DNA of 64,000 nt. Source: Candidatus Cloacimonadota bacterium (GTDB lineage: Bacteria > Cloacimonadota > Cloacimonadia > Cloacimonadales > WRIO01). Position numbers and translations under genes: made by a program. Within the stretch, counting starts at the first letter, position 1. Each line of letters starts with the position of its first letter. The DNA lies in contig WRLO01000002.1 in NCBI GenBank assembly GCA_009777575.1, positions 28,386-92,385 on the forward strand, written 5' to 3'. The notes beneath the pieces were generated by a model. It had not been told where the DNA came from, searched no databases, and saw nothing but the letters and a program-made list of their open reading frames with translations. Shown here in pieces: positions 9,156 to 53,816 of the stretch.

Positions 9156-10928
9156 TTACTTCAAAAGCACCATCCTCTTCACTTCTACACCCGCATTTGT
9201 CTCCAGACGATATAAATAAATTCCCGAAGGCACATCTTCGGCATTCCATACTACTGAATATCTTCCTGCATTTTGCTGATCATTAATGAGGGTTTCAACG
9301 AGCTGCCCTCTGAGGTTGAAAATATCAATCTTTACATTTGATTCCTCTGCGAGGTGATATCTGATAGTGGTGCTAGGATTAAATGGATTAGGAAAATTAC
9401 TTAATAATTCAGTAAAAACAGGAATCTCAATCTCATCACCTTCAGAAACTCGAACTTCTATCTCAATAGACACTATTTCTGATTCACCAATCAGATAAAT
9501 AGCCTGTAAGTTATATACATGAACCCCATCAGGAACATCATAGTCAATAAAATTAGTCTCAAGGATGAGTGAGCTATATAAAGGAAATTCATCACGATAC
9601 AATCTATAACCCAATAGATTTGCCTCCATTTGCAGAGGGATGATATTAGGGGCAGTCCAGCTCAAAGTTACTGTATTACTTTCCACATTACCTTCAAAAT
9701 CGGTTGGAGGTAATAACTCTACCGCTTTTTCATACAATACAATGTTTCCCAACTCGATTTCGATGGTTCCTACTTCTAAATTTGTGTTTACAAAATCATA
9801 ATATCCTTCTTTTGATATTGTGAGTATGTAGACAAGATCAGGATATATATTTTCTAATAGAAATTGTCCCATATCATCAGTTGTAGTTTCGTACTGTTCA
9901 ACATTTGACGATTGGAAATCATCTCTACGATAGATACTATTTTCTTGGAGAGTGACCAATGCTCCCTGAATACCAGTTTGAATTTCTGATGTTATGACTA
10001 CACCTGAAACTGATACTTCTGATACCATTGAAATATTCAAAGTGGTAATTTCTCCCTCAAATATGCTTATATTATCTATCTCTTGAGTGACAAAACCATG
10101 TTTAGAAACAGTGATACTGATAATACCCTCTGGAAGCCTTTGTAAAATATACTGACCAAAACCGTCAGTCAATATTCTTCGTGTGCTATAGTTTACTCTT
10201 ACACGTACTCCTTCAAGAGGAACATCGTGATGCGTAACAATTCCTGAGAGATGACCAATACTTTCATTAGGAACGATTGATAATGTGATATTGGGCACAT
10301 TATGTGATAGCTGACCAGACGGTGGTGATAATGGATGTAAGCTATCTGACATACCCACAATGTGTATAGTCCTAAACTTACCTTCATCTTTTGTTTGTAA
10401 AAAGGGAGTTAGCATAGGCCATGTTTGTTTATATTTTTTCCATGTATAAATAACAAGATTACCACCTTGATAAATAAATGGATTATCTAAAACTAAGGTT
10501 AAAGGATTCATTCCACTTGGATGTTGAGGCAACACATCATCGTAAACAAGTGTGAAGTATTCAGAAGGTATCCAGCTATTATTGGAAGTAAAGGTATCTA
10601 TATCATCCCATATATTTGCCATATAAACAGCTATACTGCTACCTCCAACATTTGATGATTGATCATTGTAAGTATATTCAATACTTGAGATTAGACCTAC
10701 CTCATAAAGCTCATCTGCTGTATAGATAGTTTGAGCGAGACTGCTTTCCCAATCAAAAGTGAAAGGTGCTATTGGAGACCATTCGGTGCTATTAGGATCT
10801 CCCACATAAACTTCAAGAGTCTCACCATGTAGTATTGACAAGCTCAAAAAAAGTGTTGTCAATAGCAAAAATAGACAAACATTAGCCTGCCCAATTCGTT
10901 TTGTCATCTGTTTTTTTGTTGTTTTCAT
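9156..10928 (-). CDS. Secreted protein: carboxypeptidase-regulatory-like domains, FN3, C-terminal FlgD-Ig/T9SS-A-like sorting domain
   Basis: Signal peptide; LSGIVT..PLEGVRV..TDGFGQY repeats; LPPTDFEG..VTLSW FN3; NFPNPFNPSTTI..SGIYLYRL..MVLLK; ATG 10928 has an AAGGAG RBS (track start 10976). Confidence 0.82.
   Translation of the reverse strand: MKTTKKQMTKRIGQANVCLFLLLTTLFLSLSILHGETLEVYVGDPNSTEWSPIAPFTFDWESSLAQTIYTADELYEVGLISSIEYTYNDQSSNVGGSSIAVYMANIWDDIDTFTSNNSWIPSEYFTLVYDDVLPQHPSGMNPLTLVLDNPFIYQGGNLVIYTWKKYKQTWPMLTPFLQTKDEGKFRTIHIVGMSDSLHPLSPPSGQLSHNVPNITLSIVPNESIGHLSGIVTHHDVPLEGVRVRVNYSTRRILTDGFGQYILQRLPEGIISITVSKHGFVTQEIDNISIFEGEITTLNISMVSEVSVSGVVITSEIQTGIQGALVTLQENSIYRRDDFQSSNVEQYETTTDDMGQFLLENIYPDLVYILTISKEGYYDFVNTNLEVGTIEIELGNIVLYEKAVELLPPTDFEGNVESNTVTLSWTAPNIIPLQMEANLLGYRLYRDEFPLYSSLILETNFIDYDVPDGVHVYNLQAIYLIGESEIVSIEIEVRVSEGDEIEIPVFTELLSNFPNPFNPSTTIRYHLAEESNVKIDIFNLRGQLVETLINDQQNAGRYSVVWNAEDVPSGIYLYRLETNAGVEVKRMVLLK
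9907..9928 (-). repeat. GTAG-tagged REP-like palindrome, family 1, inside a CDS
   Basis: GTAGAGATGATTTCCAATCGTC on the minus strand, read in frame as RRDDFQSS. Confidence 0.8.
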
Positions 10929-10979
10929 AAATAACTCCTTGTTAAAATCGGAATATAAAAAATGATTTTTCTCCATTTT

Positions 10980-53500: not shown

Positions 53501-53816
53501 AACTGTAGGATATTCATTTTCCTCAGAACAGGGATTAAAAATACCTTTTACTGGAAGATCTATTCAAATCAGAAATCAATTGCAATGCGATTTGACAGTA
53601 AATTATGAAACCAACAAAGCAAATAGTATATCAATAACTCAAACTACCCCTGAAACAGACACCACAAGGTTACTGATCACACCAAGAGCTTCATATAATT
53701 TTCATCGAAATGTCCGAGGTGGACTTTCTGGAACTTATGATGTGAGTCATAATAAAATTCGAGATGAGTCTTTGAATATTTTTAGGATGGATATGTGGGT
53801 AGAAGTGACTTTCTAG
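47568..53816 (+). CDS. sprA: SprA-family outer-membrane translocon (T9SS SprA/Sov homolog)
   Basis: 2082 aa; signal peptide; KYTGDEDEIVQSIEAGN, QGLFG, PGSVRV..DY.VDY..G.V, DTEDLNGNG, GWQLYRIPL, YFNDIRV and KLADF motifs; C-terminal aromatic beta-strand (VEVTF). Confidence 0.88.
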   Translation: MIKKISILFWLLILYQSIFSNNFYPPSFNLEGHIPIRNNVPDFMQSQTGISILEDKYFIMDPMRPTIVYQLDLENEMMRILLRQGQHEVAHSFYISFEDFLDNMFNLAFEREFGRIKMQQLSTRNRIDSQGLIPELVFRLPPGAMPRTVRRIMGNEAGRLSISGSTRLTISAGRTHRQTLQAVEWGGNTDFDITMRQDFNLNLRGNIGEKISVSVRYNSGQDSNIFDPNNINIKYTGDEDEIVQSIEAGNISLSLTGSRLISHSASSQGLFGVRSQFKLGDLSITAVASREEAQKNTRTFRGTSQPDSSFVQSRNFARRRMFYVVHPLELFSTYTEEDDVPPSWRNNAIRTDSDGRWIYNNPSILPTRESLKVYIARDSGVTPESFKGILVNPDGSPFYDSEILLDFLELFEGATADYTYDFDKGVITLNNPVQHNHTIAISYTEVSGHVVGNTSIEIAELKPIRLKNQDLNQSTWINELRSVYDLGMRNVRADGFLLEVFTELSDKTRNYWVTETEGAVGWEIFNYLKLDTNQDGVLDSNDLTIDLSRGMIELPFINPFYGLGDTLMYETNNMVGDDDYSHEFFIRGRIGRDQISLGNMMILPGSVRVRLNGRDVRENIDYIVDYDFGNVTFLTAEGRDPDSDIQIDYENRPLFSIDTKTMMGFRADWSPSRIFKLGGTFVYQSETMTDKRPRVGNEGRTLILAGIDGEIAVDAPFITTAIDYIPLISTEESSRLTLSGEVAMNIPRFQGSKDFGDGNEAWIDDMESIQEIFPLGIMRPTWMPASEPFATNLVRGRVNWFNPDNVYYRDVYPPNTMSERDRTEKLMVMDVKVIPPAIYTPGVSTPIWGGLMKFVGNQLDFSEREYIEFLVKVDSVAVNFSQVKMYIDMGDVSEDFYVENGGRGVLNTEDGVVSGFKNTGVLHWMDDIGLSGIPAGHPGYDPYDMFSDVQINGEFPFINGTSGNGVLDTEDLNGNGSLDTLERFFRYQVTLGDTLTSFFQSEYNGWQLYRIPLKNNPLMETLSNVSGSEANLESISFVRMWFETETLAKMRFVYIDVVGNKWKELPIRTRELFQETEVTQTMISLNNTFTSIETIDNHRSLRYVPPPGTTTSGSDDEISLEQAMMVHYNNILPGQISLVRQRFRENYNLLSYNSLRYWVHLESHPNAITTPDSVYVIFRLGVDLNRIQMNNTNYYEILKPINVNRYTTRMDILNWHDIEVNFTDITRLKTLFAEGDSVATIIRDDLIYTVEGDNVTYKFIGDDTIYRIVGNPTLSNIRDIALGIQVPDGEMPFTGTVYFNDIRVANPNQNIGYAAIASFNAKLADFSTLSVSYEWRTADFFNSTSRNLNLNSLDESVRLNISNDYSLHKFFPVAWGLRFPLRFTYEHRVGIPKYKANSDILREILSPEEQERDRNINFSRSVNSDISMTRTPNSKILAYTLRNMTFGANITERITLNATRADTTLQYRGTGTYNLSIPQDRVRIRLFGNYHLGYVPRTFNNSLTYRGETPKRWDWRVGTSQEVDEGVFYWRLPHSVPKNTRFLDTRNEIRHDLLTDLSLGYDLTTRRDLMTESLLYGVNIGTEEDRTQRFEANYNPFYMTRLSPTQISSNITYREGRTLNRSKSHEAGEDIYDFQGNVSRGVRVNMTLRNSDWMSSVANKLGERTNRRYEANTRQSGQGFDDLNNNDLFDNRIDGLMNPNIRDDDFFNPDFDWERERERELGYMFDGDDLRRPGRELGMGREIDDEGNLRIPDNENEDNENERPSGRDTERESRGPSTLIPDIFGFLARIQNFSLSYENTFTSRFEQRENRPDFLYQLGIPNVIPDSELQSRGTVDRYSASTGFPIFRNLQTDWRYSYQIDKNYTSTGPGAMTETTTWPDVRVTLSGFERLIRAERFLNSSRLTSTYNYAERLAYQGSDWNTPLSGTYTHSFSPLIGWTGNWSNNLTTTFNCGMTLTEQNTYGTNPIIRETIRMTYAGTVGYSFSSEQGLKIPFTGRSIQIRNQLQCDLTVNYETNKANSISITQTTPETDTTRLLITPRASYNFHRNVRGGLSGTYDVSHNKIRDESLNIFRMDMWVEVTF

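Follow-up and report, generated by a model that had tools for sequence, protein, structure and literature searches.

In the Bacteroidota type 9 secretion system (T9SS), the GldLM/PorLM proton motor and the PorKN ring are essential, and the mechanism of the T9SS has so far been built on this phylum. The T9SS has been called Bacteroidota-specific (e.g., PMC7463736), and complete T9SS were detected by TXSScan only in Bacteroidetes (PMC4793230). T9SS parts in Cloacimonadota have already been acknowledged (PMC11285876, PMC12611786), and a C-terminal domain (CTD) on a scaffoldin-like protein was mentioned in a Cloacimonadota genome paper (PMC8542988). Hence, since T9SS components outside Bacteroidota are present in the literature as well as in the NCBI annotation, SprA plus sorting tails in such a phylum is not new. 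As to which T9SS components these phyla have or lack, our search of the open-access literature found general statements only. Here, we analysed a stretch of 64,000 nucleotides from a Candidatus Cloacimonadota bacterium (contig WRLO01000002.1, positions 28,386 to 92,385; hereafter the window), which encodes the outer-membrane translocon SprA and seven candidate cargo proteins, and we searched the remainder of the genome and other genomes of the phylum for further parts of the pathway.

The system resembles well-described ones in several respects. Like the T9SS of Flavobacterium johnsoniae (SprA-PorV-Plug; 6h3i, 8gl8), it combines the giant SprA barrel with cargo that carries a Sec signal and a type-A, immunoglobulin (Ig)-like CTD. 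Like the PorU-PorV-PorZ-PorQ attachment complex of Porphyromonas gingivalis, the genome has PorV/PorQ-family barrels, a CTD-bearing C25-type PorU-like protein and a propeller PorZ-like protein whose gene adjoins a PorQ-like gene. In Bacteroidota, PorU and PorZ are themselves CTD proteins, docked on PorV and PorQ (PMC5445135, PMC7463736). Another point of comparison is Fibrobacter succinogenes, a bacterium from the FCB (Fibrobacteres-Chlorobi-Bacteroidetes) group outside Bacteroidota, for which T9SS display of cellulases has been proposed; its secreted enzymes have TIGR04183-type ends, with a tail that is not covered by peptides from mass spectrometry (PMC6851124). However, Fibrobacter belongs to another phylum and has basic 'BTD/Fpm-1' tails, and SprA, PorV and GldL go unmentioned in that paper (PMC6851124).

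We consider it likely that the window encodes SprA together with seven cargo proteins of a type-9-like pathway, in which an outer-membrane module operates without the known motor, either because a motor is not needed or because a different energiser takes its place. As an annotation this finding is ordinary; the missing motor is its less ordinary part. The translocon is encoded on the plus strand:

47568..53816, plus strand: SprA/Sov-type T9SS outer-membrane translocon of 2082 amino acids (aa), with a signal peptide and a C-terminal aromatic residue.

This open reading frame (ORF) is a genuine, full-length SprA/Sov translocon, in agreement with the first-pass annotation of the window, which had called it a full-length SprA homolog. 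It scored 564.6 bits against the NCBIfam equivalog TIGR04189 'T9SS outer membrane translocon Sov/SprA' (cut-off 200), with aligned pieces that cover model positions 10–2302 of 2319, and it also matched Pfam SprA_N. Its sequence matched the solved SprA of F. johnsoniae (6h3i_A, E=1.7e-54), its N-terminus is signal-peptide-like and its C-terminal end reads ...WVEVTF. Modelling of an SprA-type barrel had been set as a test beforehand. An AlphaFold2 model of residues 900–2082, based on an alignment with 33 homologues, reached a predicted local distance difference test (pLDDT) score of 75.3 and contained ~40 long strands. In a Foldseek search against the PDB, the top four matches of this model were all SprA chains (8gl8_A, E=5.4e-37, followed by 8gl6_A, 6h3i_A and 6h3j_A), and the next match was MtrB (E=4.8e-5). 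The template-modelling scores were low (0.44), as would be expected when half a barrel, unable to close alone, is modelled.

The assembly comprises 3,755,968 bases in 198 contigs, with 34% G+C and a completeness of 91.3%. For such a draft, with an estimated contamination of 1.55%, it might be argued that the contig with SprA came into the metagenome bin from a Bacteroidota contaminant. We give this explanation next to no credence. Among the matches listed, all named SprA homologues were from Candidatus Cloacimonetes/Cloacimonadota, with up to 77% identity, and several of the Cloacimonadota homologues are already named 'cell surface protein SprA' in the NCBI annotation. SprA also occurs in Cloacimonadota genomes that are closed into a single contig, the G+C content is even along the window, and the pairing of sprA with the adjacent coaX gene is kept in 10 of 10 relatives. 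The homologues, the closed genomes and the conservation of the coaX-sprA pair have effectively refuted contamination.

The seven cargo candidates form a block on the minus strand. In all seven ORFs (9156–26416), the motif NFPNPFNP lies 80 or 85 residues before the end, with G.Y(F/L)Y after it and LLK or LLR as the last three residues:

9156..10976, minus strand: cargo 1, predicted secreted protein of 606 aa, with two CarboxypepD_reg domains (PF13620) and PF18962; TIGR04183 46 bits; tail motif 80 residues before the end.
11024..14614, minus strand: cargo 2, S8 subtilase of 1196 aa; Peptidase_S8 99 bits, TIGR04183 30.2 bits.
14653..16722, minus strand: cargo 3, GLUG-motif/fibronectin-III (fn3) protein of 689 aa; Glug and fn3 domains, TIGR04183 34.1 bits.
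16857..19244, minus strand: cargo 4, GLUG/fn3 paralogue of 795 aa; TIGR04183 31.5 bits; 90% identical to cargo 6.
19374..21563, minus strand: cargo 5, GLUG/fn3 paralogue of 729 aa; TIGR04183 31.9 bits; 100% identical to cargo 7.
21698..24097, minus strand: cargo 6, GLUG/fn3 paralogue of 799 aa, tandem duplicate of cargo 4; matched by the genome-derived tail model; motif 85 residues before the end, which reads MVLLK.
24227..26416, minus strand: cargo 7, GLUG/fn3 paralogue of 729 aa, tandem duplicate of cargo 5 (100% aa identity); matched by the genome-derived tail model; motif 85 residues before the end.

A signal-peptide-like N-terminus was found in all seven. All five cargo ORFs that were tested passed the model TIGR04183 'T9SS type A sorting domain', with 30–46 bits (cut-off 23), and the remaining two are duplicates of tested ORFs, at 100% and 90% identity. 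The earlier description of seven signal-peptide proteins with NFPNPFNP...LL(K/R) tails is thereby upheld in full, and from their sequences the seven tails are predicted to be type-A T9SS sorting domains. Five of the seven are paralogous GLUG-motif/fibronectin-III proteins.

Similar tails are abundant in the rest of the genome. In total, 116 ORFs contain N[FY]PNPFN, and in 108 of these it is located 80–89 residues from the C-terminus; the tail motif is therefore not due to chance. A hidden Markov model (HMM) built from the genome's own tails was strictly C-terminal in 165 of its 174 matches. These 165 ORFs comprise 158,047 aa, or ~12.6% of the genome DNA, which is a very high cargo load compared to the Bacteroidota T9SS, and the tail consensus (NFPNPFNP...G.Y(F/L)Y...LLK) is a further difference. 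A crude test assigned a signal-peptide-like N-terminus to 123 of 151 tail-bearing ORFs genome-wide. The block of seven in the window is the densest cluster of tail proteins in the assembly. Part of this block (16723–26550) is a two-gene cargo unit of ~4.85 kb that is tandemly duplicated, with DNA that is 95% identical overall and 100% identical over 2.5 kb; the unit was either duplicated recently or doubled by the assembly.

The first-pass annotation had recognised no PorV, PorU or PorK–N in the window and proposed a genome-wide HMM search for such components. Outside the window, this search recovered barrels of the PorV/PorQ family as well as one PorU-like and one PorZ-like protein; PorK, PorL, PorM and PorN, in contrast, were not found. 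Three barrels passed the PorV/PorQ subfamily model:

Contig C66, 12012–13010: PorV/PorQ-family barrel, NF033709 196 bits (cut-off 90).
Contig C24, 26617–27564: PorV/PorQ-family barrel, NF033709 138 bits (cut-off 90).
Contig C24, 36480–37415: PorV/PorQ-family barrel, NF033709 124 bits (cut-off 90).

Only this subfamily model was passed; the score for the PorV equivalog NF033710 was 67.6 bits, below its cut-off of 250. The PorU-like protein is a C25 peptidase of 1706 aa with a CTD of its own, which scored 243 bits against NF033707, below the cut-off of 420. When it is aligned with PorU of P. gingivalis (6za2) and with the gingipains, its GHGG histidine and SC cysteine fall in the region of the catalytic dyad. 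The PorZ-like protein (964 aa) consists of Reg_prop propeller repeats and a tail, and scored 114 bits against a cut-off of 260. The adjoining PorQ-like gene scored 112 bits against the PorQ cut-off of 220, while it passed NF033709. Unlike in the Bacteroidota T9SS, PorU is not located beside a PorV gene, and PorP/SprF (TIGR03519) gave no match in this genome, although this model was run without a positive control.

Two further small barrels with weak similarity to PorV/FadL (C8:26348–27307 and C2:6703–7590) matched the PorV-family protein of contig C66 in phmmer searches (E=1.7e-4 and 5.8e-6, respectively), and each is located directly downstream of a larger ORF. A TPR protein of 958 aa (C90:8224–11100) is no more than a generic candidate for an accessory protein such as SprE/PorW, PorT, PorE or a Skp-like one.

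Our phylum sample consisted of 81 Cloacimonadota genomes from 34 genera, each with a completeness of 90% or more and many of them closed. SprA exceeded its cut-off in 75 of the 81 genomes and in 33 of the 34 genera, including closed single-contig genomes. Canonical PorU (~1290 aa, 530–640 bits) exceeded its cut-off in 31 of 41 Cloacimonadota genomes, and a PorU paralogue of ~1680 aa (~160–240 bits) was found in nearly all. Hence, most Cloacimonadota have two PorU-type genes (e.g., G008:C1:839418–842582 vs. G008:C1:477469–479730). In the genome studied here, as in a 99%-complete relative from its family, only the paralogue was seen. Around canonical PorU, inspected in eight genomes, we found neither a PorV-like gene nor another conserved neighbour. 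One genus with closed or complete genomes of only 1.5–1.6 Mb (g30) differs from the others: SprA was found in 0 of 6 of its genomes, PorU in 0 of 5, and tails over the TIGR04183 cut-off in 0 of 5. SprA, PorU and the tails are thus present or absent together, which supports a functional link between them.

Pfam FlgD_ig matches the tails as well, and one could argue from this that the NFPNPFNP tails are mere surface Ig-like (FlgD-like) domains, exported or anchored without SprA, while SprA serves another role. This seems very unlikely to us. The T9SS sorting-domain model accepts the tails above its cut-off, and nearly all matches of the genome-derived model lie strictly at the C-terminus. Moreover, the PorU-like and PorZ-like proteins bear the same type of tail, as in P. 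gingivalis, and the tails are absent together with SprA and PorU in g30.

Export by the type-9-like pathway that we favour would proceed in four steps, which we infer by homology and analogy with Bacteroidota from the observed parts list and the observed co-occurrence of parts across the phylum. Cargo would first pass the inner membrane by Sec, via its N-terminal signal peptide, and would then fold in the periplasm. Subsequently, the C-terminal Ig-like domain of ~85 residues would be recognised at the SprA barrel jointly with a PorV-family carrier barrel. Processing or anchoring of the cargo at the surface would fall to a PorU-type cysteine peptidase and the PorZ/PorQ-like pair. In the digesters and anoxic waters where Cloacimonadota live, proteases and adhesin-like proteins are probably displayed at the cell surface by this SprA route.

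In contrast to the outer-membrane parts, the motor and the ring were not detected. The GldL, GldM and GldN models gave no match in this genome by profile search. A weak match of GldK on contig C90, through an FGE-sulfatase domain, turned out to be a fusion of a Ser/Thr kinase, leucine-rich repeats (LRR) and FGE. In the phylum sample, GldL exceeded its cut-off in 0 of 81 genomes (one match reached 18.5 bits), and GldM and GldN were likewise found in 0 of 81, as was GldK at E<=1e-35. Pfam GldM_1st at E<=0.01 was found in 0 of 31 Cloacimonadota genomes. As positive controls, we applied the same four NCBIfam (TIGR) models to five Bacteroidota genomes, obtained via the CF319a 16S target, and recovered GldL, GldM, GldN and GldK (the latter at E<=1e-35) in all five. 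Unlike the Bacteroidota T9SS, therefore, neither this genome nor the 81 genomes of the phylum have a detectable PorK/GldK, PorL/GldL, PorM/GldM or PorN/GldN. Judged from these profile comparisons, the system appears T9SS-like at the outer membrane, and it departs from a canonical T9SS in the PorL/PorM motor and the PorK/PorN ring. This is in line with the 'divergent or minimal T9SS-related pathway' suggested by the first-pass annotation: SprA is genuine, the tails are of type A, PorV/PorQ, PorU-like and PorZ-like parts are encoded, and PorKLMN were not found.

Several observations weigh against an outer-membrane module without the known motor. The absence of PorK/L/M/N is deduced from profile HMMs that were built on Bacteroidota, so that very divergent or non-homologous replacements would escape. 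In this genome, none of the equivalog models of PorV, PorQ, PorZ and PorU reached its curated cut-off. The assembly, 91% complete, yielded the ~1700-aa paralogue but no canonical PorU; a gap in the assembly might explain this, or the absence might be genuine, since the 99%-complete relative mentioned above is alike. Furthermore, the contrast with g30 counts as one event, because g30 is a single lineage with reduced genomes.

These points bear on an alternative explanation, that the T9SS is complete and that its PorK/L/M/N homologues have diverged beyond the reach of the NCBIfam and Pfam profiles. The scores of PorV, PorQ, PorZ and the PorU paralogue, far below the cut-offs of equivalogs trained on Bacteroidota, imply a large divergence, and GldL is hard to detect because it is short and mostly transmembrane. 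However, SprA and canonical PorU readily exceed their cut-offs in the phylum, yet none of the four motor and ring proteins was found in 81 genomes, many of them closed. In addition, the GldM_1st search was empty at E<=0.01, the sole 'GldK-like' match is the kinase fusion described above, and no conserved genes of unknown function were seen beside SprA or PorU in the ten and eight genomes inspected, respectively. We therefore regard a complete but divergent T9SS as unlikely.

If the outer-membrane module indeed operates without GldLM, the question becomes sharper: what powers SprA-dependent export where this motor is absent? About one eighth of this genome encodes CTD-tagged proteins, with only the outer-membrane half of the T9SS machine kept. 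Cloacimonadota may thus offer a natural test of a minimal export core, as well as of the idea that the motor is a Bacteroidota addition, linked for instance to gliding. In F. johnsoniae cells without the motor, substrates accumulate on the translocon, from which release of the PorV-substrate complex from SprA was deduced as the energy-requiring step (PMC10994853).

One operon of this genome might be considered as a source of energy for such a step:

Contig C66, 3079–13010: operon with, in this order, a TonB-dependent barrel of 971 aa, ExbB, ExbD, ExbD, TonB, a protein of 1077 aa and a PorV-family gene.

The barrel is Oar-like, with CarboxypepD_reg and Plug domains, and in this genome the operon has two copies of TonB. 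Its last gene is the most PorV-like gene of the genome. The protein preceding it (~1030 aa; 1077 aa here), of CTD type and probably at the surface, was present in 36 of 41 genomes at ~50% identity, and its named homologues are all 'hypothetical protein'. It contains calcium-type loops rich in aspartate, ends in a CTD-like part, and gave neither a Pfam match nor a sequence match in the PDB. A model of the ~1030-aa protein had a pLDDT of 69, and only its C-terminal Ig/CTD part found a structural match (PorZ 5m11, E=2e-5).

Accordingly worded, the alternative would be that ExbB-ExbD-TonB supplies the energy for the pathway, or for an export route parallel to it, where a pull by TonB would free PorV-bound cargo from SprA, the step that is performed by GldLM in Bacteroidota. 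The gene order of the operon was identical in 12 of 12 other genomes from at least eight families, and the operon is the genome's only ExbBD-TonB set besides a Tol-like one. Both the ~1030-aa protein and the Oar-like barrel are missing from the SprA-less g30 (0 of 5 genomes each), which retains only a TolQ-like relative of ExbB. The proposed step would coincide with the energy-requiring one of F. johnsoniae. The Oar/Ton(Oar) system of Myxococcus xanthus provides a precedent for TonB-powered protein export by an Oar-type barrel (PMC6434023). It is alike in its TonB-dependent barrel with an N-terminal CarboxypepD_reg-type domain and its ExbB/ExbD/TonB. It is unlike in that SprA, CTDs and PorV are not known to be involved in Myxococcus, and any role of the Cloacimonadota barrel in export would be hypothetical.

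Other observations argue against this role of TonB. The barrel has a TonB-box-like motif of its own and is therefore the obvious client of TonB. We sought a TonB box on the PorV-family protein and saw none; this protein lacks an N-terminal extension that could hold one. A simpler reading is an uptake system together with a T9SS-displayed partner protein and the anchor of this partner. Moreover, the absence from g30 concerns one reduced lineage, and in the open-access literature we found no link between TonB and T9SS. By analogy, then, it is conceivable but doubtful that TonB energises export in Cloacimonadota. We are equally hesitant about the more specific version, a TonB-powered type 9 system in which SprA/PorV export without a GldLM-type motor would have the operon of Oar-like barrel, ExbBD-TonB, CTD protein and PorV as its energiser or as a coupled gate.

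Within the window, which contains 37 ORFs of at least 150 aa, SprA and the cargo block are separate loci. They are separated by ~21 kb of housekeeping genes, which include Rho, a U32 peptidase, the cysteinyl- and threonyl-tRNA synthetases (CysRS and ThrRS), isoprenoid and ether-lipid genes, and others. The coaX gene (type III pantothenate kinase, 46480–47409) is located directly upstream of sprA on the same strand, as it is in 10 of 10 other Cloacimonadota genomes. We searched the surroundings of sprA in these ten genomes for a conserved motor or partner gene, and found coaX alone, without an obvious functional reason for the pairing. Downstream of sprA (54573–57099), a gene for a STAS-domain protein is followed by one for a dCache-HAMP-SpoIIE phosphatase. 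These two genes look like a partner-switching signalling pair, and they are not kept beside sprA in relatives.

An Rfam scan of the window gave no match. Three adjoining genes at 40423–43100 encode a PcrB-family protein (similar to geranylgeranylglyceryl phosphate synthase, GGGP synthase), a UbiA prenyltransferase and a polyprenyl synthase, which we take to be the archaeal-type ether-lipid gene set reported for bacteria of the FCB group, including Cloacimonetes. Further downstream, at 57096–60911, a fusion protein of 1271 aa combines several SBP_bac_3 solute-binding domains with a permease domain of the ATP-binding cassette (ABC) type, and the next gene encodes an ABC ATPase. Finally, a gene of the CpsB/CapC family is located at 39565–40347; for one Cloacimonadota genus, poly-gamma-glutamate synthesis has been listed among the extracellular features (PMC8542988).

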